Source: an uncultured Pelagibacteraceae bacterium
Lineage (GTDB): Bacteria; Pseudomonadota; Alphaproteobacteria; Pelagibacterales; Pelagibacteraceae
Length of the DNA: 64,000 nucleotides
Direction: 5' to 3'
Assembly: GCA_902573385.1 (NCBI GenBank)
Contig: CACGJS010000002.1
Span: 17,393 to 81,392, forward strand
Positions within the stretch are counted from its first letter, which is position 1, and each line of letters starts with the position of its first letter. The translations under genes were made by a program, and so were the position numbers. Below, one piece after another: positions 12,378 to 45,189 of the stretch. The notes below the pieces were generated by a model. The model ran no database searches. It was given only the letters and a program-made list of their open reading frames with translations, and was not told where the DNA came from.

Positions 12378-14048
12378 CTATATACAAAAGAATACAGACT
12401 GCTTGACCTGTTCTAAATTAAGATTTCCTTTTACTGGCATTTGAGGAAACTTCTTTAGGTTCTTCTCAGATAACATTGCTTTCATTTCATTTGCAAAATT
12501 CAATAAAACATCTTCTTTATAGATTTCACAAAAACTATCACGAATTGCATCTGCCATTATTTTATTTTCTGGGACTGTGCAACCAAAGCTGTCATGTATC
12601 ATACTAAAGTTATCAACTCCTGCTTCTTTAGCTTTAACAACTGCTAACTGTAAAACACTAGCATCAAGTGAATGTATAAAATTAGGACAAACTGATTGTG
12701 CAGTTTTTCTTTTATCAATTATATTTGTTTGTGATGCTATAGATAACTTAACAATGCTATCTCCCATTTTAGTTTTAACTCTTTTACTTTCAGTTTTGTA
12801 ACACATCATTTGAACTGGAAAGTTAAGTTTAGGTGTTGTCCAACATACTGGTAGATTTTCTGATGCTACTAGTCTTGCTATAGATTTTAAGAAATCCATA
12901 ATGTCTCTAGCTTTAACAACTACATCATTAATACTGTCCCATACTATTGGTGTTAGATAAGCAGTAGCTTTAAATAGGTCTTCTCCAAACTTATGTTTAG
13001 TTCCTCTTTCAGCTAATTCTTTAGTTACATGGTCTTCTAAGTATTGTCTGCATGAATACCTTGTTAATGAATAAGGTAAACACATAACAGGCTTCTTACA
13101 GATTTTTCTATTTATTCCATAGTCCAACCATAACTTAGCTATATCATCTGTTTTAGCTTTTAGTTTTTCAGTAACCTTTTCTGCAACTAAATTATAAACA
13201 TCTGCAGGTTTATTACTTGGTACTAAATTAGTAGCTAATCCACCTACTTCATCTCTCATCATTGCTGAATAATGTTGTAAGCCAGAATTACTACAGTCTG
13301 CTTGTATTGGTAGCGTTGTTATAAAACTATCACTAAATTCGCTATCACTATACGCTTTCATTTCATAACAAAATGCTAAGAAACAAAAAGGTTTATCTGC
13401 ATCACACCACCATGTGTATTCTAATGGAGACTTGGCACATTCGATAATTCTTTCCATATTATCTTTAATCCATTTAATTCTTACTGGAAGTTCTTCTTTA
13501 TCTACTTCTCCAAATAGACCTGCACCTGCTATTGCTAGTACATCAAAATTATCTCCTATTCTTTTTCCAAATTTAAAAGTTAATAAGGCTCTAGAATAAT
13601 CTGCTGACTGTGGAGATAACATTGCAGGTTTCGGATATATCCTCGACCTGAAGTCTAATTGGTAAGGATAAAAGAAACCACCTTTGTCTAAAAGCATTTC
13701 AGCTTCTTCTATAATCTGACTTACTTGTATGAACTTAGAGTTTTGTTTTGCTCTACCCTCATAGACTTTAGATGCTTCTCTTTTCCATTTAATTAAACTT
13801 TCCTTATTTGTAGATATATCTACAGGCTTTATAGGAAGTTCTATTGTTTGTGGATTTATTGGTAATTTGCCTAGAGGAAAGTCATTTTCCATACATTTCT
13901 TAATAACCTCAAATATAGGTTTATTAATTACCCATTCTGTATGTTGCATAATATTGACTGATTTATAGACATCAGGCATTTGTTTGGCATGATTTTTCAG
14001 TTCTTCTAGGTATCTTCTGTTTGACGCTTTTACTAAATTAAAGTGCAT
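12378..14048 (-). CDS. T7-like RNA polymerase, C-terminal catalytic subunit
   Basis: DFRSRIY, motif A ADCSNSGLQH, motif B RKICKKPVMCLPY, motif C IHDSFG; own AGGAG SD. Confidence 0.93.
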   Translation of the reverse strand: MHFNLVKASNRRYLEELKNHAKQMPDVYKSVNIMQHTEWVINKPIFEVIKKCMENDFPLGKLPINPQTIELPIKPVDISTNKESLIKWKREASKVYEGRAKQNSKFIQVSQIIEEAEMLLDKGGFFYPYQLDFRSRIYPKPAMLSPQSADYSRALLTFKFGKRIGDNFDVLAIAGAGLFGEVDKEELPVRIKWIKDNMERIIECAKSPLEYTWWCDADKPFCFLAFCYEMKAYSDSEFSDSFITTLPIQADCSNSGLQHYSAMMRDEVGGLATNLVPSNKPADVYNLVAEKVTEKLKAKTDDIAKLWLDYGINRKICKKPVMCLPYSLTRYSCRQYLEDHVTKELAERGTKHKFGEDLFKATAYLTPIVWDSINDVVVKARDIMDFLKSIARLVASENLPVCWTTPKLNFPVQMMCYKTESKRVKTKMGDSIVKLSIASQTNIIDKRKTAQSVCPNFIHSLDASVLQLAVVKAKEAGVDNFSMIHDSFGCTVPENKIMADAIRDSFCEIYKEDVLLNFANEMKAMLSEKNLKKFPQMPVKGNLNLEQVKQSVFFCI

Positions 14049-15028
14049 TATTTCTTCTCCTTGTTAATTGATTGAATGATTTCTTTAGTATCGTTTTTGT
14101 AGTTATGCTTCCTGCCATAATATCCTCCTACAAAAGGATTTTCCCAATCTCTAGGTGGCATTAACATTGGTAGGTATTTAGGATAAAGAGCTTCATTCTT
14201 AATATTAAAGTTCTTAATTTCCTCAATGACATGTGGTGTAGCTTCTACATAACAAACAGTTTTAGTCTTACTAGACTTTCTATTCTGATGTTTAACTAGA
14301 TTTAATCTCTCACAATAAGAGACTATTTTTACACCAAGATGTAATTGGCTTTCTTTACTCCAATCATCAAACTGTAATTTGTGCTTGTTCATACAGTAAG
14401 TCCAAACCTTACGCTTGTAGAGGTATCTATTGGCGTTCTGAGGTATGTTTTTTCCTGTAAGTCTCTTTGCTACTTGATTGTATTTATCTTTTTCTTCATC
14501 TTTAAAGATGGTTATTTTAGCTTCAAGCATTAATGCAGTACCAATAACTATAGCTAATTTATTAAGTGTGGTTTCTGCTGAGATACCATCAATTACATTC
14601 TTCAATGCAATCAGGCTCACAGTATCCCATACATTAGGATTATTCTCTACGAACTCCTCGTTAATAAATGCTGACTTTGGTAAACACTGACAGAGTAGCT
14701 TTAATGCTGTTTGCCTATTCCCTGCTTCTCCTGAGGTCATTTTACAGACTTCATCATGGATTAGCTTGGATAGCTCAGTTATATACTTCTGCTGAAGTAC
14801 AATGCCATATAGCGTAGTACTTTCTTGATTATCCTTTACTGCTTCTCTGATTAGCTTTTGGTATCTATTTATACCACCTCTAATCATAGCTTCTTCAAAA
14901 GCTATTTCTTCTTCAATCTTTTTTACATAGTCTTCGGTGTTCTCATTTCTAAATTTACCACCTACTCCTACTTTAATTAATTCCTCCAACTGTTGCTGAA
15001 GTAATGTCTTCTGTTCTGATGTACTCAT
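14048..15028 (-). CDS. T7-like RNA polymerase, N-terminal subunit
   Basis: FEEAMIRGGINRY, WSKESQLHLGVKI, PMLMPPRDW...GGYY (T7 PCVVPPKPW...GGGYW). Confidence 0.9.
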   Translation of the reverse strand: MSTSEQKTLLQQQLEELIKVGVGGKFRNENTEDYVKKIEEEIAFEEAMIRGGINRYQKLIREAVKDNQESTTLYGIVLQQKYITELSKLIHDEVCKMTSGEAGNRQTALKLLCQCLPKSAFINEEFVENNPNVWDTVSLIALKNVIDGISAETTLNKLAIVIGTALMLEAKITIFKDEEKDKYNQVAKRLTGKNIPQNANRYLYKRKVWTYCMNKHKLQFDDWSKESQLHLGVKIVSYCERLNLVKHQNRKSSKTKTVCYVEATPHVIEEIKNFNIKNEALYPKYLPMLMPPRDWENPFVGGYYGRKHNYKNDTKEIIQSINKEKK

Positions 15029-15218: not shown

Positions 15219-15257
15219 TCCTAAGACTAACGCGTCTACCAATTCCGCCACTCGCCC
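15219..15257 (-). pseudogene. tRNA-Leu(TAG) 5' half at prophage att junction
   Basis: GGGCGAG TG GCGGAATTGGTAGACGC G TTAGT CTTAGGA = acceptor 5' strand, D arm, anticodon 5' stem and loop; expected ACTAA replaced by TATAT. Confidence 0.9.
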
Positions 15258-15271
15258 ACAAATTATGCAGT

Positions 15272-29791: not shown

Positions 29792-30538
29792 TTGGACCTG
29801 AAAAATATCATTTTAAATAGTTTTTTATATGTCCCAATGCCAATTATATGGTTATTTATGATATATTTTTTTATTAAATCTAAACTTTTAAAAAAAATTA
29901 TTATTTTGTTTAGTTTTACATTTTTATTAATCACATCTTTACCTATCTTGTCATCTAATCTTAATAAATTTTTTTATAGTGACAGCTACAAAATCTCAAA
30001 TAATAAAAAAAAAATTTCTTACGTATTAATTCCAACTTCAGGAATTTATCATGATAGACACAAAAATTGGCATCCAACAGAAGAAAGTATAAGCCGAACA
30101 CAGTATGGAAAAAAATTAGCAGATGAGTTTAATATTCCTATGATTATATCTGGTGGAGAAAGTGGAAATACATCTTTTTTATCAGATAAAAATATAAGAA
30201 GAAGTAAAGCAGCTAATTTAATTTCAGAATATTTTTCTTATGATTTTTACCATATAGATTCTGAAAGTATGAATACCTTTGAAATGGCAAAAAATTTAAA
30301 AAAATCTAATATAAATTTTGATGGTCCAATATTATTAGCAACAAATCCCCTTCATCATAAAAGAACAATTTTGGCTTTAAAGAAACAAAACTTAGATGTA
30401 GTAATTCCTGATGATTATATTAAAAATACCAGGAATAGTTATTCAATAATACCATCTATTAATGGTTTCAATAGTTTTAATAAAATTATTTATGAATTCT
30501 TAGGCTTAGGTTGGTATTATTTATCGGGAAAAATTTAA
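29792..30538 (+). CDS. YdcF/DUF218 family protein
   Basis: N-terminal TM, IISGG, SMNTFE, HHKR, YEFLG. Confidence 0.75.
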   Translation: MDLKNIILNSFLYVPMPIIWLFMIYFFIKSKLLKKIIILFSFTFLLITSLPILSSNLNKFFYSDSYKISNNKKKISYVLIPTSGIYHDRHKNWHPTEESISRTQYGKKLADEFNIPMIISGGESGNTSFLSDKNIRRSKAANLISEYFSYDFYHIDSESMNTFEMAKNLKKSNINFDGPILLATNPLHHKRTILALKKQNLDVVIPDDYIKNTRNSYSIIPSINGFNSFNKIIYEFLGLGWYYLSGKI

Positions 30539-30555
30539 TTTTCTAAAAATATTTT

Positions 30556-31479
30556 TTAATTTTTTCTAAATAAAATTGCCAAAGCTCCATTTGGATGTTC
30601 TGTTTTTATGATTGATGATTTTTCTGTATTATCAAAAATAAAATCTAGATCATTTGAAGTAAGAATAGAATGGTTAAACTTTTCTTTTTTTAAAATATAA
30701 TCAAATATTTGTTCAATAGTATATTTGTCTCTTTGTAAAAAAATTCCACTATTTTCTTTATTAAATTTTTGAGATAAATTTCTTTCCCTATCAGCGCCTC
30801 TAAAATCTTCTAAAATATAGATCCCACCATCATTTAAATGTTTGTAAAAATTTTTTATATTAAAAAAAAAAGCATCATATGTGTGGCTACTATCGTCAAT
30901 TATAACATCAAACTTTTTATTTTTTTTAAGAAAATTATTTACTTGTTTTTGATTTAAGCAATCAACACTTGAATAATTTAATCTATTACCCTTATAAAAC
31001 AATTTATCTTTTTTTTTTATATCCATGCCATTTATTGATGCATTAGAAAAATATTTATACCAACTAGCTATTGAATGCCCATTTGCAACACCTATCTCTA
31101 AAAAATTTATATCTTTGTCTTTTAAATTTTCAAAAATTTTCTCATATATACTGGTAAAATCATGTCCAAGTTGGTGTTCAAAATTATATGCATTTTCTCT
31201 TTTAATCCATTCTTCGTAGTTTTTAAATTTAACCTCTCTATCTAAAATCAAATGATCATAAGTTTTTTTACCATCAAATTTTCCTTTATCTGAACCAAAT
31301 CTTAAAAAAAGTTCATCTAAATTAAGATTATTGTGAAAAGTCAATTTATCTAAATCAATTTTATTATTTCCAAATAATGTAAAAAATGATTTGTAAAAAA
31401 TAGACTTAAAATCACCTCTACTTAAATAAAGAAAAAATCTTTTATAAAAATATTTTATTTTAGACATCATATTTTTCAA
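30556..31479 (-). CDS. Class I SAM-dependent methyltransferase (sugar O-methyltransferase-like)
   Basis: GSDK, FLEIGVANGHS, FDVIIDDSSH, GGIYILED. Confidence 0.8.
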   Translation of the reverse strand: MKNMMSKIKYFYKRFFLYLSRGDFKSIFYKSFFTLFGNNKIDLDKLTFHNNLNLDELFLRFGSDKGKFDGKKTYDHLILDREVKFKNYEEWIKRENAYNFEHQLGHDFTSIYEKIFENLKDKDINFLEIGVANGHSIASWYKYFSNASINGMDIKKKDKLFYKGNRLNYSSVDCLNQKQVNNFLKKNKKFDVIIDDSSHTYDAFFFNIKNFYKHLNDGGIYILEDFRGADRERNLSQKFNKENSGIFLQRDKYTIEQIFDYILKKEKFNHSILTSNDLDFIFDNTEKSSIIKTEHPNGALAILFRKN

Positions 31480-31554
31480 TGATTAGTACGTTTGTGATAA
31501 AATTCATAGTTAAAAATTCCTTCTGGACAATTAGACTAGATATTATAAAAACAA

Positions 31555-32253
31555 TTGCAAATGATAAAAACCTTTAAAACTGGTAAATGGACATTTGGAA
31601 AAAATGTTTATAAAGAATTTAACTCACACATCGAAAAAAGTATACCGAGCTATTTAAAAACTCAAAAATTAATTTCTGAATTATCAACTTACTTCTTAAG
31701 GGAAGACTCTATTTGTTATGATATTGGTTTTTCTACAGGAACACTTTTAGTTAAGATCAATAATTTAAACCTTGAAAAAAAAATAAATTTCATTGGTATA
31801 GAACCTGAGTTAAATATGCTCAAGAGTTTTAAACGTTCAAAAGAATTTAAAAAAATTACATTAATTAATAAAGTAGTTGAAAATATCAAAATGAAAAAAA
31901 GTGATTATATTATTTCTCATTATACATTACAATTTATAAGACAAAATCTTAGATTAAAAATTTTAAAAAAAATTTACAATTCATTGAATCCAGGTGGAGG
32001 ATTTGTATTATTTGAAAAAGTTTATGCAAATAATTCAAGATTTGAAAAAATTTTTTCAGACATGCTAGTTGACTTTAAATCGAAAAATAATTTCTCTGAA
32101 AAAGAAATTATTAATAAAAATAAAGCTATACGCGGAATTCTTGAACCCTTAACTACAAGACAAAATATTATAAATTTAAAAAAAGCGGGTTTTAAAAATA
32201 ATCAGATAATTCATCAAGATATTAATTTTATAGGGATACTATCAATTAAATGA
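31555..32253 (+). CDS. CmoA-like SAM-dependent transferase
   Basis: HIEKSIPSY, YDIGFSTG, YTLQF, LNPGGGFVLFEK. Confidence 0.8.
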   Translation: MQMIKTFKTGKWTFGKNVYKEFNSHIEKSIPSYLKTQKLISELSTYFLREDSICYDIGFSTGTLLVKINNLNLEKKINFIGIEPELNMLKSFKRSKEFKKITLINKVVENIKMKKSDYIISHYTLQFIRQNLRLKILKKIYNSLNPGGGFVLFEKVYANNSRFEKIFSDMLVDFKSKNNFSEKEIINKNKAIRGILEPLTTRQNIINLKKAGFKNNQIIHQDINFIGILSIK

Positions 32254-33083
32254 TTAAAATTAAGTTACCAAAAAAAATCAAAAATTTAATTAATGCTAAA
32301 AATAACGATGATGTTATTAGAAATAATCTAATTATAAGTAAAAAGTTTCCAAAAATCATTCTTGATAACGATATAAAAAAAAGAATTTTCTCTAAAATAA
32401 AAAAAAAAGATATTAGAGTTTCTAAGGTTCCACACACACCTGATTTAGCAGATTTATATGTCCTTTATAATTTGATCTATTTAAATAACAGAATTAATAT
32501 TTTAGAATATGGTTGTGGATCTTCATCAATAGCTATTTTAAAAGCCTTAAATGATATCAAGAGAAAAAAAAATTCTAAGCATTTTACAAGAATTAAAAAC
32601 CCTTACAGTTTAACTATTATGGATGATAATAAGTTTTTTTTAAACATAGCAAAAAAAAAAATTATAAATTCAAAATATTATAATAAGAATGTAAATTTTC
32701 ATTACTCTAAATGTGTTATGACAAAATATAACAATAGATATGCCACTGAGTATTCATCACACGCATTAGTAAATCCAGATTTTATTTATTTAGATGGGCC
32801 AAGTCATGTTAATATTAAAGGAAAAATTAACAATTTTACTGTTAATGATTTTGAAATGATGCCTATGGTATCAGATATATTAAAGTATGAAAATTTTTTA
32901 ACTCCAGGAACAATTATATTAACTGATGGCAGAACCAACAATGTGAGATTCTTATTAAATAATTTTCAAAGAAAATGGAAACATTTAGAACTGGAATGGA
33001 ATGATAATCACATACTTTACTTAGATGAAAAGCCACTTGGAAATTGGAATAAAGAACAAATTAAGTTTTATAATTCAAATTAA
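32250..33083 (+). CDS. Hypothetical protein, methyltransferase-fold-like
   Basis: ILEYGCGSSS, DFIYLDGP. Confidence 0.55.
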   Translation: MIKIKLPKKIKNLINAKNNDDVIRNNLIISKKFPKIILDNDIKKRIFSKIKKKDIRVSKVPHTPDLADLYVLYNLIYLNNRINILEYGCGSSSIAILKALNDIKRKKNSKHFTRIKNPYSLTIMDDNKFFLNIAKKKIINSKYYNKNVNFHYSKCVMTKYNNRYATEYSSHALVNPDFIYLDGPSHVNIKGKINNFTVNDFEMMPMVSDILKYENFLTPGTIILTDGRTNNVRFLLNNFQRKWKHLELEWNDNHILYLDEKPLGNWNKEQIKFYNSN

Positions 33084-33108
33084 GTTGTGAAAAAATTTAA
33101 ATAAATTT

Positions 33109-34944
33109 ATGTGTGGTTATATATGCTTTGTTAATGAAAATAATCTTGCTAATAAATATTTAAATTATACTTATAAAAATGAATTATCAAACCACAGGGG
33201 ACCAAATAGTCAAAAATTTTATAAAGAAAATAATTTTCTTGCATATTTTAGACGATTATCAATTATAGATGTTACTCATAAATCAGATCAACCAATTATA
33301 TCTCAAGATAAAAGATACATTTTAGTATTTAATGGTGAAATATATAATTTTATAGAATTAAGAAATCGTTTAAAAAAAAAAAATATTAAATTTAAATCAA
33401 ATGGTGATGCAGAAGTTATTTTAAAAAGTTTTATTTACTATGGTGAAAATTTTGTAGATGAATTAAGAGGTATGTTTAGCTTTTGTATTTGGGATAAACA
33501 TCGACAGAAACTCATTGCTTACAGAGACCGATTTGGGCAGAAACCTTTATATTATTTTAAAACAAATCGAGGTTTAATAATTTCTTCTGAAATAAAAGAT
33601 ATAAATAAAATTGCTAACTTAAGTAAAAATTCTTTAACTATAAATAAATATTTATTTAGAAATATCCTTGATAATAATGATGAAACTTTTTATGATAATT
33701 TAAAAAGACTTGAACCTTCTAGAAGATTAATATTCGAAAAAAATACTATTAAAATATCTAAATATTATGATTTAAAATTTTCTGAAAAAAAAAATTTTAT
33801 TCTGGAAGAATTTTTAGATATTTATAACGAATGTTTAAAATTACATTTACAATCGGACGTTAAAATAGCTTTTTTATTAAGTGGTGGAATTGACTCATCA
33901 TCTGTAGTTGCTAGTTCTTTAAATTTTAAAAAAAATATTAAAGCTTTTACAGTGATACCAAAATATACATACAACGAAAAACCATATATCAATCATTTTA
34001 TAAAGCAAAAAAAAATTTCTCATGAATACATAAATCTGGATGACAAAATAAATGTTGATAACTTTAAAAAAGCGTTATCTTTTCAAGATGAACCATTTCA
34101 TGGAACAAACAGTTTATATCAGTTTTTATTAAATCAAGAAATCATAAAAAGAAAATATAAAGTTGTTATTACTGGCGAGGGCGCTGATGAAGTTTTGGGT
34201 GGTTACGATAGAATGTTTCTATATTATATGTGGCAACTTCTAAATGATAATAAAATTAAAAAATTTGATAAAATAGTTTTTGAAAGAAATTTAAATAAAG
34301 ATTTATTAAAAAAAAATATTTTAAATTTAAAAAAAAACATAAATAAAAATATTACTGATTTTGAAAATAATAAAGCTTTTGAATATTTAAATTCAAATAC
34401 TAATAAGAATAAATATTATAATTTAAGATGGAATGATCTTAGAGCCTCTAATAAAAATGTTTTTAAAAAATCACTTAAAAACTCTATTTTTACAAATGAT
34501 TTACAAATTGCTTTGAGGATGTCAGATAGAAATTCTATGTCATCAAGTATAGAAAACAGAGCTCCTTACTTAGATCATAAATTTGTTGATTATATTTTTT
34601 CTATAAAATCAGAAGACTTTTATTATAACAATATGTCTAAGGGCATGTTAAGATTTGCAATGAGAGAAACCTGTCCAAAAAAAATTCTTAATAGAAAAAA
34701 CAAAACTGGTAGACCAGGAAGCGATATGTATTTTATTTTTAAAAAGGTTTTTGATGATTATATTGATTTATTAGAAACATCTGATCTTACCAACTATGGC
34801 TTTAGTATTGAAAAAATTAAAAAAACACTATTTAAATTCAAAAAAAACCTTAATTATTCTTCAAGCTTAAATAAAGATTTTAGAAATGATATGAACTTTT
34901 TTTTTAGAATATACTCTTATTTAGTTTGGTCAAAATTAAATTAA
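33109..34944 (+). CDS. asnB: Asparagine synthase (glutamine-hydrolysing) family amidotransferase
   Basis: MCG, HRGP, NGEIYN, RDRFGQKPL, SGGIDSS, GEGADE. Confidence 0.9.
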   Translation: MCGYICFVNENNLANKYLNYTYKNELSNHRGPNSQKFYKENNFLAYFRRLSIIDVTHKSDQPIISQDKRYILVFNGEIYNFIELRNRLKKKNIKFKSNGDAEVILKSFIYYGENFVDELRGMFSFCIWDKHRQKLIAYRDRFGQKPLYYFKTNRGLIISSEIKDINKIANLSKNSLTINKYLFRNILDNNDETFYDNLKRLEPSRRLIFEKNTIKISKYYDLKFSEKKNFILEEFLDIYNECLKLHLQSDVKIAFLLSGGIDSSSVVASSLNFKKNIKAFTVIPKYTYNEKPYINHFIKQKKISHEYINLDDKINVDNFKKALSFQDEPFHGTNSLYQFLLNQEIIKRKYKVVITGEGADEVLGGYDRMFLYYMWQLLNDNKIKKFDKIVFERNLNKDLLKKNILNLKKNINKNITDFENNKAFEYLNSNTNKNKYYNLRWNDLRASNKNVFKKSLKNSIFTNDLQIALRMSDRNSMSSSIENRAPYLDHKFVDYIFSIKSEDFYYNNMSKGMLRFAMRETCPKKILNRKNKTGRPGSDMYFIFKKVFDDYIDLLETSDLTNYGFSIEKIKKTLFKFKKNLNYSSSLNKDFRNDMNFFFRIYSYLVWSKLN

Positions 34945-34986
34945 TATTATTGATATTTTCTACTATTATAAAAATGATTAAATAAA

Positions 34987-36075
34987 ATGAATAAAATACT
35001 CAAATATATATCTATATACTTATTCTTTTTTATTGTTGGAGACATTCTATTTAGTAACTTTATTTATAAAAAGAAGGTTCAAAATAATTGTTATAAATAT
35101 ACTGAGTATTTTCATCACCTTAAAAAGAATTGTCATGCTAAAGAAAAATGGCTTAAAAATGCTTTAAGTTACGATGTTTATACTGATAATAATGGATATA
35201 GATATAGTGGTAAAAAGAAACATGCCAATTCCAAAAAAGTTGCTACTTTTTCTGGAGGATCTTTTGCTTATGGTATGGGATTAGACTATAAAAAAATTTT
35301 TACTGGATTAATAGAAGACAAAAATAAAGAATACAAAATTATAAATTTAGGTGTACCAGGATATAGTACTTCAGTATTTAATTATCAATTAAAAAAACTA
35401 ATCAATAATGGAATTATACCAAAAAAAATTTTCGTTGTACTTGATGTCCTTGATGTCTCAAATGAAGCATCACTTTGGGGTAAAAAAAATGAATATGACC
35501 ATCCAGTTAAATTAAAAAAAAATATTATTGATGTAGAAGATAACAATAGTCTAAAAAATATTAAAAGAAATAATTTTAAGGTATCAAGATTAATAGCTAG
35601 AAGCGTAAATAATTTTTTTAGATCTATAAGGTTATATTTTAAAACCTTAGGAAAAGAACCTGAGGAGTCAATTAAAACACCTTGGGGTAGTTTTTTATAT
35701 ACCAAGATAGAAGAAACAGAACAGTGGTTATGGGAACCTTTCGGTTTTAATCAAGGTATTTTTAAAGTAACAGAAAATATGAAAGAAATTTCAAAAATGG
35801 CTCAATCGATTAATGCAGATTTTTATATAATAATTTACCCTTGGCCAGATGCGTTAGAATATGGTCAAAATAATTTTAATTGGGAAAAGTTTGCTAATAA
35901 TTTATGTAAAGAAGTTTCTTGTACTGAATTGATAAATTTATTTCCAGATTTCAAAATTATTAAGGAAAATTCTAGTAATTGGATTAGTAAAATATATATT
36001 AAAGATGATATGCATTTAAATGAATTTGGCCACAAGGTCATTGCTGATAAGATATTAAAAGTTGGATTTAATTAA
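34987..36075 (+). CDS. SGNH/GDSL-like membrane-anchored protein
   Basis: GGSFAYG, NLGVPGYS, DMHLNEFGH. Confidence 0.75.
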   Translation: MNKILKYISIYLFFFIVGDILFSNFIYKKKVQNNCYKYTEYFHHLKKNCHAKEKWLKNALSYDVYTDNNGYRYSGKKKHANSKKVATFSGGSFAYGMGLDYKKIFTGLIEDKNKEYKIINLGVPGYSTSVFNYQLKKLINNGIIPKKIFVVLDVLDVSNEASLWGKKNEYDHPVKLKKNIIDVEDNNSLKNIKRNNFKVSRLIARSVNNFFRSIRLYFKTLGKEPEESIKTPWGSFLYTKIEETEQWLWEPFGFNQGIFKVTENMKEISKMAQSINADFYIIIYPWPDALEYGQNNFNWEKFANNLCKEVSCTELINLFPDFKIIKENSSNWISKIYIKDDMHLNEFGHKVIADKILKVGFN

Positions 36076-37397
36076 GTTTCTTTTTTAGCTTCAGTTTTAA
36101 ATTTATCAATCAAATAACTTGTATTTTTAAAACAAAAAACAATGATTAAAGCAATAAAAAGTATTATTAATATATTTGTTTTATCTTGAAAATAACTTGG
36201 TAATTCAAAACCATTTAATCCTAACATACCTTTAATTATACTAAGTGAGCTATTTAGATTATCAGATCTAAAAAATACAAAAGTTAAATTGATGTAATTA
36301 AAAGTGAGAAAACAAGCAATATACTTATTTAATTTAAAATCAAATAGTTTTCTATACACATGGTTTGTTATTAATCCAAATCCATGTAATGCTCCAAAAA
36401 TTACGAATAACCATGACGGTCCGTGCCAAATACCTGCAATAAGAAATACAAAAAAAATTATAATCATTATCTTTAAAAAATTTACTTTTTTTAAAGATTT
36501 GACCCACGGAAAATAAATGTAATTTGTTAAAAAGTTTGCAAGTGTAATATGCCATTTTTGCCAAAAATTAATAATACTTGTAGCTTTATAAGGACTATCA
36601 AAATTAATTGGTAATCTAATATTAAACAATAAAGCAATACCTGTTGCCATATCTACGTACCCACTAAAATCAAAATAAATTTGAAAAGTAAAACTTAAAG
36701 AAGTTAACCAGCTAGCAAAAAATTCTAAATTTTGAGATCCCGAAAAACCATCTTCAACAAATATAGCTAAATTGTCTGCTAAGATTATTTTTTTAAATAG
36801 TCCAATTAAAATTATAACTAAGCCTAGATTTATATTTTGTCTGTTGATAAATCTATTATTTTGATCATCAAATTGAGACATCATATGATTATATTTAACA
36901 ATTGGACCTGCAATTAATTGTGGAAAAAAAATTATAAATAAAGAATATTGAGTAAACCTTGTTCTTTTAATGTTGCCATCATAACAATCTACTAAGTAAG
37001 CTATTGTTTGAAATGTAAAAAAACTCATTGCCAATGGAAATGGTAAATTAAGTAAATCTATATTTGAATTAAATAAAAAATTAATATTTTCAATTATAAA
37101 ATCTGCGTATTTAAAAATAGCTAAAAATAATATGTTAAAAAAGATTGCAAAAAAAAGAATTTTTTTTTTATAATTTTTATGAAGATCATTTTTAATTAAA
37201 TTACCAAAATAAAAATTAAAAATTATTGAAATAATAATTATTGGAGACAGATAAATATTCCACCAAGCATAGAAAAAAAATCCTCCAATAATTAAGAGAT
37301 ATTCATGAGCAAATTTTGAAAATCTAGATAGATAGTAATATAAAAATAAAATTATTGGTAAAAACAAAAATAAAAATACGGGACTATGAAATAACAC
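36072..37397 (-). CDS. MBOAT O-acyltransferase (AlgI/DltB-like)
   Basis: SFFTFQ, FFPQLIAGPI, DFSGY, FWQKWHITL, GIWHG. Confidence 0.93.
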   Translation of the reverse strand: MLFHSPVFLFLFLPIILFLYYYLSRFSKFAHEYLLIIGGFFFYAWWNIYLSPIIIISIIFNFYFGNLIKNDLHKNYKKKILFFAIFFNILFLAIFKYADFIIENINFLFNSNIDLLNLPFPLAMSFFTFQTIAYLVDCYDGNIKRTRFTQYSLFIIFFPQLIAGPIVKYNHMMSQFDDQNNRFINRQNINLGLVIILIGLFKKIILADNLAIFVEDGFSGSQNLEFFASWLTSLSFTFQIYFDFSGYVDMATGIALLFNIRLPINFDSPYKATSIINFWQKWHITLANFLTNYIYFPWVKSLKKVNFLKIMIIIFFVFLIAGIWHGPSWLFVIFGALHGFGLITNHVYRKLFDFKLNKYIACFLTFNYINLTFVFFRSDNLNSSLSIIKGMLGLNGFELPSYFQDKTNILIILFIALIIVFCFKNTSYLIDKFKTEAKKET

Positions 37398-37401
37398 TTT
37401 A

Positions 37402-37629
37402 TTATTTTAAATGATTTACTATTGATTTTATAGATGTTAATTCACCCATTTTATTGGCGCCAATTTCTTGATTAGTTTTTTTTTCTATCTCTAAAATTAT
37501 ATTTACTTGTGCAAGACTATCCCACTGATAGAAATCTTTTGATTTAGAATTTATATTAATATTTTTTGCTTCAACCTTAATATGTTTTGAAACTATTGAA
37601 ATTATTTGTTCTAAATCAATTTTTGACAT
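37402..37629 (-). CDS. Acyl carrier protein
   Basis: 75 aa, WDSL phosphopantetheine site. Confidence 0.85.
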   Translation of the reverse strand: MSKIDLEQIISIVSKHIKVEAKNININSKSKDFYQWDSLAQVNIILEIEKKTNQEIGANKMGELTSIKSIVNHLK

Positions 37630-39364
37630 TATAAATAATTTTTTTCTTAATTTCCTGAATTACCTTGCTATTTAACATTGTAGATAAATCTCCATGTTTT
37701 TTTGAATAGGGATCTATCAAAATTGATCTTAATAGTCTACGTAAAATTTTTCCACTTCTTGTTTTAGGTAATTCATTTATATAATAAATTTCTTTCGGTA
37801 GTGCAAATGATCCAAAATTTGAAACTATTTTTTTTGATATTTCATTATTAAGTTTATTATTTTTAGATACTATAAACAAATAAATGACATGACCTTCTAA
37901 ATCATTAAGTATTGATATTGCACAACATTCATAAATATCCTTAATTGCTAAAACAACAGACTCAATTTCTTCTGATCCAATTCTGTGTCCCCTAATATTT
38001 ATTACATCATCAGTCCTGCCGTGTATAAAAATATTTTTGTTTTTAATTGTGGCCAAATCAAACATTCTAAAGTTATTAGATTTATCCCAATATTTTTTCC
38101 ATTCCTTATTTCCATTTAAAATACTTTTCATGCACCCTGGCCATGGAGTCAATATTTTCATTTCAGTTTTCTTATCTTTATAAAGTTTATTTATCTTTAA
38201 ATACTTACTTGCAAGCTCTCCAGCAGAGCCGTGTGGAACTTGAGAAGTTTTTTGTTTATAGGTAGGTGAAGCTATTATTGCTCCATTTTCTGTTTGATAA
38301 TAAGCATTAACTATAGGTTTGTTTTTATTTGTAAAGTTTTTTGCAAACCATTCTGCTACTGATGGCGCTATGTGTTCTCCCATTGATCCTAGAGTTATAA
38401 GATACTTTGTTTGAAATTTTTTTTTTTTAAATATTATTTTCATTAATCGTATTAAAGTAACTGGCAAATATAAAATAGTAATCTTTAATTTTAATATTTT
38501 TTTTAAAAAAAAATCATCAATTAATAACATCGGTTTTTCAATTAAAACAGCAGTAGCACCGAACGACAAAGGACCAAATAATGCATAAGTATGACCATTT
38601 AACCATCCAGCATCTGATGCGGTTAATATAATTGAATTTCTATTCATTCCAAATTGATGCTTGCAAGTATATTTTGTATAAACTAAATATCCAGCAGAAG
38701 CATGAGTAATTCCTTTGGGCACACCAGTAGAACCTGAAGTAAAAAGTGTAAACATTTCTTTACTACCGTTAATTATTTTACTTTTTAAATTAATAATTTT
38801 TTTATTATTTGGGTGTTTTAATTCATTAAAAAATAAAAATTTAGGCCTTTTTTTAGTTTTTATTTTTTTAGAAATAGTTTTTTTAAATATTTTTTTATTA
38901 AAGGTTGAAAAAAAAATATCAGGTTTAAATATTGATATTCTTTTTGAAATTGCCTCTGGAGCCAAGTCTTCAAATATCACCGAAAAATGAATTCCAAGTT
39001 TAGTACAGCTTAACATTGAAATAGAAGACTCCAATGATGCAGAAGCATGAATCATTACCCTAGAAGAAGATATTTTTTTATTTCTAAGGTGCGAGGTTAA
39101 TATAATTGAAAATGAATTCACTTTTTCATTTATTTGGTCATATGTATAACTTTTTACTTTTTTATTTTTATCTATACAATGAATAGCAACTTTTTTTCCA
39201 AGACCTATTTCTATATTTTTAGTAATACAATTATCAAAAATATTAGTTTTACCGTCAGGATACCAATCAACATAATTATTATTTTTTTTTTTATAAGCAA
39301 AAGAAGGTTTTTGCTTCCACCACATTAAATCTGATTGTTTCAACCAAAAATTTTCAATTTTCAT
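37616..39364 (-). CDS. Acetyl-CoA synthetase-like adenylating enzyme
   Basis: FTSGSTGVPKG, YYQTE, GRTDDVINIRGHRIG, PKTRSGKILRR. Confidence 0.88.
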   Translation of the reverse strand: MKIENFWLKQSDLMWWKQKPSFAYKKKNNNYVDWYPDGKTNIFDNCITKNIEIGLGKKVAIHCIDKNKKVKSYTYDQINEKVNSFSIILTSHLRNKKISSSRVMIHASASLESSISMLSCTKLGIHFSVIFEDLAPEAISKRISIFKPDIFFSTFNKKIFKKTISKKIKTKKRPKFLFFNELKHPNNKKIINLKSKIINGSKEMFTLFTSGSTGVPKGITHASAGYLVYTKYTCKHQFGMNRNSIILTASDAGWLNGHTYALFGPLSFGATAVLIEKPMLLIDDFFLKKILKLKITILYLPVTLIRLMKIIFKKKKFQTKYLITLGSMGEHIAPSVAEWFAKNFTNKNKPIVNAYYQTENGAIIASPTYKQKTSQVPHGSAGELASKYLKINKLYKDKKTEMKILTPWPGCMKSILNGNKEWKKYWDKSNNFRMFDLATIKNKNIFIHGRTDDVINIRGHRIGSEEIESVVLAIKDIYECCAISILNDLEGHVIYLFIVSKNNKLNNEISKKIVSNFGSFALPKEIYYINELPKTRSGKILRRLLRSILIDPYSKKHGDLSTMLNSKVIQEIKKKIIYNVKN

Positions 39365-39449
39365 ATGATTAATAACAGTTTTATTATTTATTAGTTTATC
39401 TATAATAAATAATATACTTGAATTATTAAATAGTTATATATTATTAAGT

Positions 39450-39599
39450 ATGGATTTATTCATTAAACTTTTGGAAATTTTGAGTGAAAAAAAAAAATAT
39501 TGGTTATACCCAATAATTTTTTTCTTTATACTTTTTGCTATATTAACTTACTTCTTCCAAGGAGCTTCTGTACCACCTTGGATTTATTCAATTTTTTAA
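39450..39599 (+). CDS. DUF5989 (SxtK-like) small membrane protein, 49 aa
   Basis: Manual translation ...KKKYWLYPIIFF...QGASVPPWIYSIF resembles family pattern KKYWLxP...QGSAVAPFIYTLF. Confidence 0.75.
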   Translation: MDLFIKLLEILSEKKKYWLYPIIFFFILFAILTYFFQGASVPPWIYSIF

Positions 39600-39637
39600 A
39601 ATAACCTCTAAGATTTAGTTGTGTTATAAAGTTTATT

Positions 39638-40618
39638 ATGAATAGTTTTTTACTTACAAAATTAAGAAAAATTTTTAAATCACTTGGAAAATATGAGTAT
39701 AAGATTTTAGATAAAATTACTTTATCTGAAAATAAAAACATTACTATTAATGACGAAATAATTTTGGAATATGAAAAAAATTTAAAAAAATCTTCTTTAT
39801 TTCCAAAAAAAATGTCAATTGTTATTTGTTTTCATTATAATAAAAAAAGAATTAAAAATTTAAAAACTATTCTTAGAAATATCAACAACTATAAATTTTC
39901 AAAAAGTGTAACAGTTATAACTAATGATATAAATCAAGATAGCTATAATTTTCTTAAGAAAAAGTTAAATAATAGTTTAAAAAAATTTAATATTATAAAA
40001 ATAAAAAATATTCCTGAACCTAATTTGCTTCCTTGGTATTGTTTAGATTTTATGAAAAAAAGTTATAAAAATAAATCTTTCTCACATTTTTTATATCTAG
40101 AAGACGATATTTTAATAAATGAAAAAAATATTAATTATTGGATTTTTACAAGAAAAATTTTAAAAAAATTTAATTTTATTCCTGCTTTTTTAAGATGTGA
40201 AAATAATGGTAAAAAACTAATCTCTGTAGACAATCCAAAAATTATTAAAATAAAAGATACACCAAGAATATTATCAAAGTCAAAAAAGTTTGGATTTATT
40301 AATTTAAAATATCCTTATCATGCTTCATGTCTTATGGATCGTGATTTAATGAAAGAATGTATAAAAAGTAAATTAATTGGAATCGATTATGGTATAAGTC
40401 ATAAAGTTATGAAAACTTTATACCCAATTAAAGAATTAGCTAATATAATCATTGGATATATAAATGTTCCAAAGGGTTACCATAATAGATTTTTTTTACC
40501 ATTTATAAACTTTAATAAAATCCCGATTTACTCAATTATAAAACATATTGATAATAAATATGTTAAGATAGATAATGAAAGTTTTGGTAAAATAGATATT
40601 AATTTTTTACTAAAATAA
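39638..40618 (+). CDS. Hypothetical protein, possibly glycosyltransferase-like
   Basis: FLYLEDD motif; island context. Confidence 0.5.
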   Translation: MNSFLLTKLRKIFKSLGKYEYKILDKITLSENKNITINDEIILEYEKNLKKSSLFPKKMSIVICFHYNKKRIKNLKTILRNINNYKFSKSVTVITNDINQDSYNFLKKKLNNSLKKFNIIKIKNIPEPNLLPWYCLDFMKKSYKNKSFSHFLYLEDDILINEKNINYWIFTRKILKKFNFIPAFLRCENNGKKLISVDNPKIIKIKDTPRILSKSKKFGFINLKYPYHASCLMDRDLMKECIKSKLIGIDYGISHKVMKTLYPIKELANIIIGYINVPKGYHNRFFLPFINFNKIPIYSIIKHIDNKYVKIDNESFGKIDINFLLK

Positions 40619-40622
40619 TATT

Positions 40623-41924
40623 TTAAATTTCACTTTTTGCTTTTAATTTTTCATACATAAGTCTAGCTTTAACACCTATACTTAAAAATGGCTCGGGTGG
40701 TAACCATGTGGGTTTAGTTCTGCTTTCTATAAGATTAATTTCTGATGAATTTTCGTCGCTTGCTTTAATCGCAATTTGTTCACCAAATAAGGTTCCAACA
40801 CCAATGCCAGATCCATTATAACATCCTGCAACAAAAATATTTTTGTCTATTTTTTCAAATATTTGTGAACCATTCCTTGATCTAGAGACAACACCTGACC
40901 AGCTAGATTCAATTATATCTGATGGTAATTCTGGAAATCTTTTTTTAATACTCATGTATTGATTTATTGACCTTTTTTTAATTTCACTTTCTTTCATTTT
41001 AAAGGGATTAAATACTTCAGCAGTATTCCTTACTAATATTCTTCTATCTTTTGTCATACGCACAGTTGCACCCATAGGTCTGACTGGAAGAACGCCCCAT
41101 TCGTCTGGCTCTCCAATAGATTTAAATTCATTTTCTTTCAAAGGTCTTGTCATGCTTGCTGTTAATGTTAATGGAAAATTATAATTTGATTTTATACCTA
41201 ATGATTTTAAAAATCCATTTGTACAAAATATAATTTTTTTTGTAGTTATATTCGCATTTTTAAAATTACATAAAATGACATCTTGATTTTTATTCCAATT
41301 TAAAAGTGTGGAATTTTCATATAATTTAATATTTTTAGGCAATGAATCAATCATAGCTCTAACTAATTTTCCAGGATGAAGTAAAATACCCCCTTTTGTA
41401 TAAAGGGCTAATTTATAAAAACTAGTACCTAGCTTATCACTTAATTCATTTTCGGAAAATAAATCGTGCCTGAAATTTAATTTAGATAAAATTTTACTAA
41501 AATTTATTAAAATTTTTTTATCTTCAATTTTTGATGAGGCAAAATATTTTCCACTTTCGCTCCAATCACAATCAACTTGATATTCTTTTATAAATTTTTT
41601 TACATAATCTATTCCTAATTTATAAATGTCAGTTTTATTTTTGTAGTTGTCTAATTCTTTATTAGAAGTAAATCCATCATTTAAAGTTGTATCAACTAAA
41701 TATCCAGAATTTCTTCCGCTTGCTCCTTCTCCTGCTAATTGGGCATCAATTAATATTATTTTTTTATTTAAATGAATTTCTGACAATTTTCTAGCTGCTG
41801 AAAGGCCAGTATAGCCAGCTCCTACAATTAAATAATCACACTCTTCATCTTTGGAAACTGAATTGATGTTTGTTCTTAATGGAATGTTATTAATCCATCC
41901 ACAAAGTTTATCGTTTTGAACCAT
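40623..41924 (-). CDS. FAD-dependent oxidoreductase (DAO/PuuB-like)
   Basis: GAGYTG, GASGRNSG, GCYNGSG. Confidence 0.88.
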   Translation of the reverse strand: MVQNDKLCGWINNIPLRTNINSVSKDEECDYLIVGAGYTGLSAARKLSEIHLNKKIILIDAQLAGEGASGRNSGYLVDTTLNDGFTSNKELDNYKNKTDIYKLGIDYVKKFIKEYQVDCDWSESGKYFASSKIEDKKILINFSKILSKLNFRHDLFSENELSDKLGTSFYKLALYTKGGILLHPGKLVRAMIDSLPKNIKLYENSTLLNWNKNQDVILCNFKNANITTKKIIFCTNGFLKSLGIKSNYNFPLTLTASMTRPLKENEFKSIGEPDEWGVLPVRPMGATVRMTKDRRILVRNTAEVFNPFKMKESEIKKRSINQYMSIKKRFPELPSDIIESSWSGVVSRSRNGSQIFEKIDKNIFVAGCYNGSGIGVGTLFGEQIAIKASDENSSEINLIESRTKPTWLPPEPFLSIGVKARLMYEKLKAKSEI

Positions 41925-41986
41925 ACCTTTAATATAATATGTTTTGACAAAACTCTTAAACCATATATTTACTATAAATTACAAGA

Positions 41987-44434
41987 ATGAACTACGTACT
42001 ATTATACTCTTTTTTATTAATTTTTACTTTTTCAATAATTGGATATGGATTTTTAATTTCAAAAATTACTAATAAAGAGCTTCTTAGCTATAATCTTGGG
42101 TATCAAGGTTTATTAGGAATTTTTTTCTTAACTATCATATCATATACTACAATTTTTTTTGTTAAACATGGTTATGTTCATAATTTAATAGTACATTTTA
42201 TAGGATTAAGTGCTTTTTTTTATTTTTTTAAAAAAAAAATATCTTTTTTTGCATTAGGCAGATTAATATTAATTATAAGTATTTTTTTTATTGGAATACT
42301 AATTTTAGTTAATCATGATGACTTTTCTTATTACCATCTAACATATTCTCTTGGGCTGACAGAAGATAAATTAATTTTTGGATTAGGAAACTTCCAGCAT
42401 GGATACAGACATCATTCATCAATATTTTTTTTTAATTCAATAATCTATCTGCCATTTATAAAATTCTATTTATTCCATTCTCTTGGATGGTTTGTTTTAA
42501 TTTTTGCAAATTATTTAATTATTGACTTTTTATTATTTAAAAAAATTAAAGAATTGAAATTTGAATATTTTTTTTACTTATTAACATTAGTATTCATCAA
42601 TATTAAATATAGTCGTATTGGTGGTTATGGAACTGATTTACCGGGACAAATTATTTTATTACTAATAGTTCCATTAATTTACTCTACGCTTAAATTAAAG
42701 ACTGAAAATGCTAGATTTTCTTCAAATCTTTCAATAATTATATTTTTAATTGTATATTCGGCAACTTTAAAATCTTTCTTTATTTTAAATTTAATTTTTT
42801 TAATACCTTTCTTTTTCTTTTTTAATTTTAAAGAAATTTTAAAACATTTGTTTTTATCAAAGACATTTATTATCAGTTTTTTTATAATTTCATTATTATT
42901 ATCAATTAATATTGCATACACAGGATGTGCAATTTATCCTGTAAAACAAACTTGTTTTGAAAATAAGCTTAGTTGGTCATTGTCAAAAAAAGATGTTGAA
43001 CAAATGAACAAATGGTATCATCAATGGTCTAAAGCTGGAGCTGGCATCAATTATAGAGTTAAAGACCCCGAAAATTACATTAAAGGAATTAATTGGGTAG
43101 GTAATTGGTATGATAGATATTTTGAGTACAAGGGAAATGAAACTCTAAGAGCAATGCTTGTATTCTCATTAATATTTTTGTTGTTATTTAGAGGGCCAAA
43201 AAAAGAAATTCCTGATAAAAGAAATAAAAAAATTACCTGGTCATTATTTATACTAACAATTGTATTATCTTTAGAGTGGTTTTTTAACCATCCAGCTTTT
43301 AGGTATGGAGGGTATTATCTATTATGCATAATATGGTTTATTCCTTTGTCAATTTATCTTGGTAGTAAAGAATTTTTATCTATTAACAAAAAGAAAATAA
43401 CTATCTCTATAATTGTATTTTCAATAATAATTTTTAATTTAAGAAACTTAAAAAGAATTGATGATGAATTTTTAAGAGTCACAAATCACAATTTTCCTCT
43501 TTTTTATGTTGAGCATCAAAGTTCTGATGAAATAGACTTGGGAAATAATGTTAAAGTTTATATTCCTAATATTGGTCAGGGATGTTGGGTAACAAAAACA
43601 CCTTGTGTGCATGGTGCTAGTGGTTATTCAGCAAAAAATAATTTTGGTTTTAAAATAATCAATGGTAAAAAAATTAGACCAATTAGCAAAATTGAAGAGT
43701 CTGAAGCAATAAATCCAGCAAAGACTCTATCAACTGACAGTTATGAAGTGGCTAGCTCTATGAGATTTAATCCTGCCAATACATCAGGGCTTAGAAAAAC
43801 TGTTGATTCAACTTCCTCTTTAATTGATAGAAAAAAATTAAGTTTATCTTTTTGGGTTAAAAGATCAACCACAGGAACTCAATGGATATTTACAAATTCA
43901 ACTTCTGACAATATCCAAGATTTTACTTTAAAATTTGAAAATGACGCATTAAGACTTTACGATTATCCAGGCAGTTATAAAATTAACAAAATAACTAATA
44001 GATTATTTTTGGATTCCGAATGGTATTCAATAATTATTATAATAGATACAAAATTAAAAACAGCTAGCGATAGAGTTAAAATTTATGTCAATGGTGTAAG
44101 AGAAACTTCTTTTTCAACAAACATTGATCCAGATCAAAATTACAGTATTTCTGTTTTTTCTAATACTGACAAAGAAACAGTTATTGGTGCAAGAGGTGGA
44201 GTAGATAGCCTTCCTCAACACTTTGATGGTTACTTATCTGAATTTTATACTATTGTAGGAAAAGCAAAAGCTAGTACTGATTTTGGAAAATTTGACGAAT
44301 CCAGTGGAAAATGGAAGCCAATAAAATATGAAGGAAGTTATGATAATAATGGTTTCTTTTTGGATTTTGCTGATAATGAAAACTTAGGAGATGATGAAAG
44401 TGGAAATGAAAATGATTTTTTAGCCTTTAAATAA
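41987..44434 (+). CDS. Multi-pass membrane protein (LIC_10190/GT-C-like) with C-terminal phage-like LamG/ConA domain
   Basis: N-part: DFSYYH, many TM, TGCAIYP, HPAFRYGGY, CWVTKTPC; C-part from ~43709: YEVASSMRFN, SFWVKRS, DRVKIYVNG, FDGYLSE, GFFLDF. Confidence 0.8.
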   Translation: MNYVLLYSFLLIFTFSIIGYGFLISKITNKELLSYNLGYQGLLGIFFLTIISYTTIFFVKHGYVHNLIVHFIGLSAFFYFFKKKISFFALGRLILIISIFFIGILILVNHDDFSYYHLTYSLGLTEDKLIFGLGNFQHGYRHHSSIFFFNSIIYLPFIKFYLFHSLGWFVLIFANYLIIDFLLFKKIKELKFEYFFYLLTLVFINIKYSRIGGYGTDLPGQIILLLIVPLIYSTLKLKTENARFSSNLSIIIFLIVYSATLKSFFILNLIFLIPFFFFFNFKEILKHLFLSKTFIISFFIISLLLSINIAYTGCAIYPVKQTCFENKLSWSLSKKDVEQMNKWYHQWSKAGAGINYRVKDPENYIKGINWVGNWYDRYFEYKGNETLRAMLVFSLIFLLLFRGPKKEIPDKRNKKITWSLFILTIVLSLEWFFNHPAFRYGGYYLLCIIWFIPLSIYLGSKEFLSINKKKITISIIVFSIIIFNLRNLKRIDDEFLRVTNHNFPLFYVEHQSSDEIDLGNNVKVYIPNIGQGCWVTKTPCVHGASGYSAKNNFGFKIINGKKIRPISKIEESEAINPAKTLSTDSYEVASSMRFNPANTSGLRKTVDSTSSLIDRKKLSLSFWVKRSTTGTQWIFTNSTSDNIQDFTLKFENDALRLYDYPGSYKINKITNRLFLDSEWYSIIIIIDTKLKTASDRVKIYVNGVRETSFSTNIDPDQNYSISVFSNTDKETVIGARGGVDSLPQHFDGYLSEFYTIVGKAKASTDFGKFDESSGKWKPIKYEGSYDNNGFFLDFADNENLGDDESGNENDFLAFK

Positions 44435-44439
44435 AAACT

Positions 44440-45189
44440 TTATTTTTTCTCAAAAAAAATAATATCTGATTTTTCTGTATTACCTTTGTATTCGTATATA
44501 TTTTTATTATTTTGAAAGATATTATTTATCGTATCATCTGATATTATCTTCGAAGTAAAAGCCTTTTTATCTCTAACATTATTAGCTAATTCTTCAATTG
44601 AAATGTCATTAACATCCTTTAAATGATTAAAATGATCTAATAACTTGTAATCTTCAACAATATAAAAGCCTGATTTTCCAATAAATTTATAAAAAAAGTT
44701 TAAAGCAAGTAATTGATCACTCAAAATATGTGATCCATCATCAATTATAATATCGAATGTATTTATTTTTTTAAAGAAATTTATTTTATTTAAAAATGTA
44801 GTCATCATTTTATAATTTGAAGAATCCATTCCAAAAACATGAATTCTTTTTGAATAAAATTTAAAATTTCTTATATTAATATCTAAACAATAAATTTGAG
44901 AGTTTAAGAAATATTTTGAGAATGCTGCTGCTGATGCTCCAGAAAAAGAACCTATTTCTAAAATATTAATTTCTTTTTTATCTTTAAACTGATTTAAATT
45001 TTTTTCATAAAATTTTGCAAAACCGTGTCCTTGTTTAGTTTCATTATCTACTAAATTTGCTTTATCAGTGTTATAGAATTTAAATAATTTATCTAATGAA
45101 GAATTATCAATATTATCTTGTAGATCAATGTTTATTTTTTTTTTTAATTTGTAAATAAGATTTCTTTTAAATAGACTAAAGAAATTCAA
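44440..45189 (-). CDS. Class I SAM-dependent methyltransferase, paralogue of 30556-31479
   Basis: NTDK, ILEIGSFSGAS, FDIIIDDGSH, GFYIVED. Confidence 0.8.
   Translation of the reverse strand: MNFFSLFKRNLIYKLKKKINIDLQDNIDNSSLDKLFKFYNTDKANLVDNETKQGHGFAKFYEKNLNQFKDKKEINILEIGSFSGASAAAFSKYFLNSQIYCLDINIRNFKFYSKRIHVFGMDSSNYKMMTTFLNKINFFKKINTFDIIIDDGSHILSDQLLALNFFYKFIGKSGFYIVEDYKLLDHFNHLKDVNDISIEELANNVRDKKAFTSKIISDDTINNIFQNNKNIYEYKGNTEKSDIIFFEKK

Follow-up and report, generated by a model that had tools for sequence, protein, structure and literature searches.

The window analyzed here, a stretch of 64,000 nt from an uncultured Pelagibacteraceae bacterium, contains an intact open reading frame at positions 41987-44434 (+) whose deduced product of 815 aa, with zero internal stops, joins a host membrane protein in frame to a LamG domain probably derived from a phage virion protein. 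We give about even chances to the explanation that this is a GT-C-fold inner-membrane protein carrying a phage LamG domain, captured once, as an optional periplasmic glycan-binding module. If so, the fusion would represent a clean, datable capture of a virion-module domain by a host envelope enzyme, kept under selection in SAR11, a group that sheds spare DNA.

Organization and recurrence of the fusion gene

The fusion gene and its surroundings comprise the following features:

29792-45189 (no strand): low-GC island with genes for a DUF218 protein, several methyltransferases, an asparagine-synthase-like protein, a DUF1574-like protein, an MBOAT, an AMP-binding enzyme and an FAD oxidoreductase
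40623..41924 (-): FAD oxidoreductase of the DAO family; in G350 and G366, the closest unfused orthologues likewise have one next to them or nearby
41987..43660 (+): membrane domain similar to DUF8201 (PF26626)/LIC_10190, residues 1-558, with ca. 14 predicted TM helices and a predicted GT-C fold
within 41987..43660 (+): predicted small C-terminal periplasmic subdomain of the membrane domain, with a Cys pair
43661..43708 (+): linker of 16 aa, residues 559-574, the most variable part of the fusion
43709..44419 (+): complete LamG/ConA-like domain of 237 aa, residues 575-811
44420..44434 (+): four extra codons and stop, end of the open reading frame
44440..45189 (-): methyltransferase with a weak Methyltransf_24 match, followed by rpsD; a relative with 41 % identity adjoins the unfused orthologue in G366

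Every motif quoted in the first-pass annotation is found in this frame, which that annotation had divided into a membrane part of ca. 570 aa and a soluble part starting near position 43709. The membrane part is present as described, except that its end lies earlier, at the FGFKII motif (residue 558, nt 43660), and the LamG domain begins where expected, at residue 575 (nt 43709) after the 16-aa linker. The extension beyond the DUF8201-like part amounts to 257 aa, and 5 nt beyond the fusion lies the end of the convergent methyltransferase gene.

At assembly level, the fusion is real and not a chimera, because its junction recurs, in diverged versions, in independent assemblies. Seven further full-length fusions of 815-816 aa occur in other assemblies (P0001, P0002, P0241, P0242, P0243, P0245 and P0247, with P0002 and P0247 possibly coming from one data set), and a partial fused sequence from another assembly (P0248) also covers the junction. 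Two full-length fusions, with 94-95 % identity, were among the best 120 of 715 homologues, the remaining 118 matching the N-terminal part alone, so that the shorter, unfused relatives anticipated for this part do exist; the clusters of those two fusions add five full-length fusions, one partial and one unfused member. Those homologues that carry a name belong to Ca. Pelagibacter, which likely places the host in SAR11. Additionally, contig MDSV01069288.1 (locus L018) is 95 % identical across 14.4 kb, with an identical fusion and an identical gene order. A chimera of host and phage DNA produced during assembly or amplification, which would have overturned the first-pass reading, might be suspected in a fragmentary, prophage-bearing genome (848 kb in 54 contigs, 61 % complete, ca. 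28 % GC), but it is refuted by the diverged junctions and is further contradicted by the host-like GC3 of the fusion (0.15), and we consider its probability negligible. The GC content of codon positions 1 and 2 was mostly below that of five phage-type relatives.

The N-terminal domain occurs in 193 of 400 other genomes of the genus, the open frames listed for it being of at most 624 aa (49 matches are outside this list), and a LamG query found no fused copy in the same 400 genomes. The fusion is thus rare among these genomes, as had been proposed, a wide distribution in SAR11 having been named as refuting a capture.

Phage affinity of the LamG domain

The C-terminal part matched Laminin_G_3 (PF13385) with 41.6 bits, above the gathering score of 27.6, as well as the PHROGs families phrog_27411 (E = 3e-37) and phrog_19943 (E = 2e-26). 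Folded as a model separate from that of the N-terminal part, it gave one closed LamG sandwich (pLDDT 90), which indicates that the capture took in precisely one folding unit. This model was similar to BACOVA_03559, a putative carbohydrate-binding protein (Z 19.7), and its best match to a viral structure had a TM score of 0.87 and an rmsd of 2.0. Searches by sequence retrieved solved structures for neither part, except for SPRY proteins for the phage half.

The domain is equivalent to the N-terminal half of LamG-SPRY proteins of phages: the matching stretch begins right behind their initiator Met and ends immediately ahead of their SPRY linker, and the whole LamG domain is shared, from the N-terminal motif to the closing DxSGN motif. 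It matched 55 phage records, 26 of them from Pelagibacter phages, with ca. 29-38 % identity to the phage sequences among the 40 matches listed. Its closest relatives, P0121-P0123, are LamG-SPRY proteins of 472-480 aa with 54-62 % identity. An IMG/VR contig encodes a sequence 100 % identical to the last 76 aa of P0121, with DUF7483 and an endolysin next; because the LamG half of P0121 lies past the end of that viral contig, the viral location of this half is presumed. In a quick tree of 178 rows, three fused domains and P0121-P0123 formed a group (SH-aLRT 99) nested within 77 rows mostly from viral contigs (support 85), and the five genome loci (six rows) of this larger group all lie amid phage-like genes, as judged from a reading of their open reading frames. 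No close relative of the fused domain itself was found in viral contigs. The domain therefore groups with viral sequences, in line with the phage origin put forward in the first-pass annotation, and not with cellular LamG proteins, the placement regarded there as incompatible with it. These similarities suggest that the domain is likely derived from the phage LamG-SPRY virion-protein family, of which it would no longer be a member, lacking SPRY and DUF7483. In contrast to the phage proteins, LamG is here C-terminal and tethered to a host membrane protein, with changes at 10 of the 59 columns conserved in the family, where the median is 4 and 12 of 105 members deviate as much.

The 157 other LamG open reading frames, from 151 loci, all have at most one TM stretch. 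Complete frames number 110, of which 108 also include SPRY or DUF7483, and every one of the 110 continues past LamG. Single-TM cellular proteins carrying the LamG module account for 13 of the 157. The large single-TM proteins of loci L029, L034, L063-L065, L068, L069 and L087 (Patescibacteria and one alphaproteobacterium), mostly with SPRY or DUF7483, are possibly separate cellular uses of the phage-type module. A source of the fused domain in a cellular surface protein, rather than in a phage, could be envisaged from the 75 cellular-contig loci that carry the family, some of them signal- or TM-anchored (Patescibacteria, Alphaproteobacteria); nevertheless, across most of the domain those proteins reach no more than ca. 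42 % identity, they are placed elsewhere in the tree, the nearest relatives show the phage two-gene form, and the LamG query was positive in a single one of the 400 genus genomes, within a phage-like cassette, making such a source very improbable. For the linker, a derivation from the end of an upstream phage gene, to which it bears a resemblance by eye, was not supported by a profile of 22 gene ends (P of ca. 0.14, 0.53 and 0.08 for three alleles).

Annotations of the phage LamG-SPRY genes vary among lectin domain, virion structural, fiber protein and hypothetical, with examples in HTVC024P (gp40), Skadi-10 (gene 56) and HTVC201P ("lectin domain containing protein"). In cultured pelagiphages, the gene follows the putative tail fibre either directly or four genes later, and it adjoins tail-fibre genes in Skadi-10 and HTVC024P. 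Being distinct from the putative tail fibre and located downstream of it, the gene is, judging from gene order, a structural-module gene with putative receptor binding at most, and the initial designation of the domain as a tail-fibre receptor-binding module is not supported. Lectin genes in variable regions of pelagiphages are proposed as host-recognition genes in PMC10504331 and PMC3909814. The LamG-SPRY family is very large (ca. 5,500 stretches estimated in IMG/VR; 11,819 representatives), and the soluble domain of 237 aa offers a route to the ligand of this uncharacterised marine-phage family, which bears on pelagiphage recognition.

The resident prophage, with whose tail fibres a comparison had been suggested, is T7-like and without a LamG-SPRY gene. 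It was rejected as donor, since LamG and SPRY HMMs and a DUF7483 query matched nothing beyond the fusion in the 61 %-complete genome, where the prophage tail module is wholly on the contig; SPRY and DUF7483 were absent from the fusion as well as from this genome. The prophage RNA polymerase, at 12378-15028 (-), is encoded in two open reading frames of 326 and 556 aa with a 1-base overlap, whose best matches are in HTVC041P, 025P and 011P; the split looks common to known phages, because several of the matched records list two RNA polymerase features. At the prophage-host boundary there is a fragment (ca. 15220-15258, -), presumably similar to the 5′ half of tRNA-Leu(TAG), that is likely an att remnant; ARAGORN and Rfam identified no full tRNA at this position.

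Predicted fold, topology and neighbourhood of the membrane domain

Residues 1-558 align along the whole length of DUF8201 members of 560-570 aa, and a DUF8201 match (PF26626; Atlas score 0.99) is precomputed for P0001 and P0002, which are 94-95 % identical to the present fusion. A local Pfam scan returned no match for this part, that Pfam copy being probably older than the PF26626 model. Model NF047510 (LIC_10190) scored 78.8-80.4 bits (E = 1e-22), related although below its cutoff of 100, and the fusion further differs from the members of both families in its C-terminal extension. No relatives of this part were found in viral contigs. The residues invariant in 92 sequences (HDD 110-112, R210, D217, K262 and RYGG 439-442) are kept in the fusion; D111 and D112 sit in loop 109-164, the first large extracytoplasmic loop predicted, and in this respect the protein has the acidic loop typical of GT-C enzymes, its acidic residues being judged by conservation rather than by residue-by-residue superposition on a known active site. 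The model of the N-terminal part (pLDDT 92), compared with solved structures by VIA, was most similar to ArnT (Z 12.8, in the caution range of the tool for helical proteins; rmsd 5.0, 331 aligned), with further matches to ALG12 (Z 11.8) and AftA (Z 10.0). The top 15 VIA matches were all GT-C enzymes except one, a GPI transamidase subunit, and Foldseek agreed on GT-C, weakly (E above 0.06). A GT-C fold is thus predicted from matches of modest to moderate strength, and the LIC_10190-type, GT-C-like nature initially ascribed to this part is backed both by these structural matches and by the below-cutoff similarity to NF047510. This resemblance marks the members of DUF8201, an unstudied family, as probable GT-C transferases. 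P0008 and P0475 (608 aa), from a close DUF8201 lineage, carry a different C-terminal extension of ca. 45 aa after the same GFKI end, suggesting that this end of DUF8201 tolerates additions.

Fourteen helices were counted, and the K/R bias on alternate loops was 22.8 vs. 14.7 in 92 homologues. In this rough estimate, which is based on helix count and an uneven charge bias only, the K/R-poor side, taken as periplasmic, would hold the acidic loop, the two Cys-pair loops and also the C-terminus, so the LamG domain is predicted to project from the inner membrane into the periplasm. This disfavours the surface-displayed decoy or mask that had been contemplated in the first-pass annotation. An anti-phage decoy, mask or sensor, which would bind either the phage receptor or a part of an incoming phage so as to block or signal infection, would be in keeping with the phage origin of the domain and with the position of the donor-type gene next to tail-fibre genes. 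It would also agree with a lectin-domain structural gene, possibly another gene than LamG-SPRY, in the hypervariable region of Skadi (PMC10504331) and with the description of the O-chain as a main target of phages in Pelagibacterales (PMC11898729). However, a periplasmic site would be beyond the reach of adsorbing tails, the fusion contains no signalling or effector domain, the carrier retains all the invariant family residues, and the LamG cap is nearly invariant (98-100 % identical among most alleles), unlike an arms-race gene; we hence find this role improbable.

The fusion gene belongs to a low-GC stretch of ca. 15 kb adjoining rpsD, where L018 has a 75-aa ACP-like open reading frame between the MBOAT and AMP-binding enzyme genes. 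We take this island to resemble a Dlt/AlgI-type envelope acylation module. The surface-glycan island of the first-pass annotation appears instead as a cluster for acylation, amidation and methylation beside rpsD, and is not recognisable as an rRNA-flanked O-chain cluster, which is marked by 23S and 5S rRNA genes according to PMC11898729. The closest unfused orthologues retain the oxidoreductase or the methyltransferase neighbour, and distant ones adjoin glycosyltransferase and sugar-nucleotide genes, as read from their open reading frames. The genes adjacent to rpsD vary among five relatives. At this spot, the relatives' loci L210-L212 have membrane proteins of 528-533 aa or a protein of 738 aa. 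Two open reading frames of the island had no Pfam match, one of 326 aa at 39638-40618 (+), kept in L018 with a dN/dS of 0.105, and one of 277 aa at 32250-33083 (+). A promoter scan was at chance level (20 vs. 24.1). A search for sequencing data sets containing this DNA listed no RNA set, and the DNA sets shared at most 0.20 of its words.

Selection, recombination and possible role of the LamG domain

The LamG domain is under purifying selection: in the comparison of one sequence pair, the window and L018, dS was 0.139 and dN/dS 0.21 (18.5 synonymous and 16.5 nonsynonymous changes; binomial P = 8e-6), with a dN/dS of 0.22 for the N-terminal part and lower values, 0.045-0.134, for seven neighbouring genes. 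The changes in conserved columns mentioned above include the loss of the near-invariant R of the TNRLFRD motif, and the branch of the fused domain is longer than that of its sister (0.55 vs. 0.29); the lost columns and the longer branch also fit functional decay. The main rival of the periplasmic-module explanation is, in fact, that the domain is a functionless, tolerated passenger, namely phage DNA at the 3′ end of the gene that is kept folded since a misfolded tail would harm the enzyme. The loss of conserved family residues, the absence of the domain from 118 of the best 120 homologues and the existence of an uncapped allele with an identical N-terminal part (P0246) are all as expected for a passenger. 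Yet one stop codon would lift the burden, and the eight full-length fusions, all of them, keep the domain whole; moreover, a dN/dS of 0.21 at a dS of ca. 0.14, the retention of exactly one folding unit, and the occurrence of LamG on two N-alleles that are 14 % apart argue against it. Streamlined SAR11 genomes, besides, lose useless DNA. On balance we hold a passenger to be rather unlikely, if more credible than the other alternatives to the periplasmic module.

In a phylogeny of 26 close homologues, the fused N-terminal parts and that of the unfused P0246 formed one clade (100/99), indicating a single gain. P0246 departs within the linker region and has its stop codon four residues later. Its N-terminal part (558 aa) is identical to those of P0243 and P0245 and 14 % diverged from that of P0001; P0243 and P0001 are 86 % identical in this part and 99 % in LamG, and the LamG domain of P0245 is likewise 99 % identical to that of P0001. 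This pattern points to recombination near the junction, and the LamG module would have moved between alleles by homologous recombination there; that P0243 and P0245 are assembly mosaics is less favoured, considering their extra linker lysine. Capped P0243 and uncapped P0246, having identical enzyme parts, constitute a natural control pair.

According to the explanation that we prefer, the LamG domain of a marine phage LamG-SPRY virion gene would have been captured once, in frame, by one narrow DUF8201 lineage. The N-terminal part would transfer a lipid-phosphate-linked sugar onto an envelope glycan, and the LamG domain, on the evidence of its fold, may bind a glycan and help to hold the acceptor, being probably dispensable as in GT136. 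Among the possibilities raised in the first-pass annotation, the one in which the domain would guide the transferase to its glycan has the best support. Against a glycan-binding module, LamG folds can bind proteins as well, as in pentraxins and neurexin, and the uncapped allele exists.

GT136 (Citrobacter youngae ORF12), whose C-terminal CBM binds the acceptor LPS and is dispensable, and the mycobacterial EmbC and AftD, which have a CBM, likewise combine a membrane core of the GT-C type and a beta-rich module outside the cytoplasm (PMC11127046 for GT136 and EmbC, and 10.1101/2019.12.22.885152 for AftD). The architecture class, GT-C plus acceptor-binding module, is thus already known; what is particular here is a module of probable phage origin. 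The fusion differs from these enzymes in belonging to another sequence family, DUF8201; in that its module has the LamG fold and phage affinity, is found in one small lineage and is absent from one allele; and in that its activity is a prediction, no donor synthase or flippase being recognised beside the gene. A literature search, with most subscription journals and all supplements outside its scope, located no paper on LIC10190 or DUF8201, nothing on the SPRY domain of pelagiphages and no description of the fusion or of the function of either family.

We see little likelihood in a phage-guided camouflage, whereby the stolen phage lectin would direct the transferase to modify the very host epitope that the phage recognises and the cap would be swapped in and out by recombination. 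Seroconverting Gtr systems are carried by prophages. Those systems (GtrA/GtrB/Gtr*; PMC11127046) resemble the fusion in having a GT-C enzyme that modifies a surface glycan and a link to phages; however, in their case the entire transferase machinery is phage-borne, whereas here a host transferase would have taken a virion domain.
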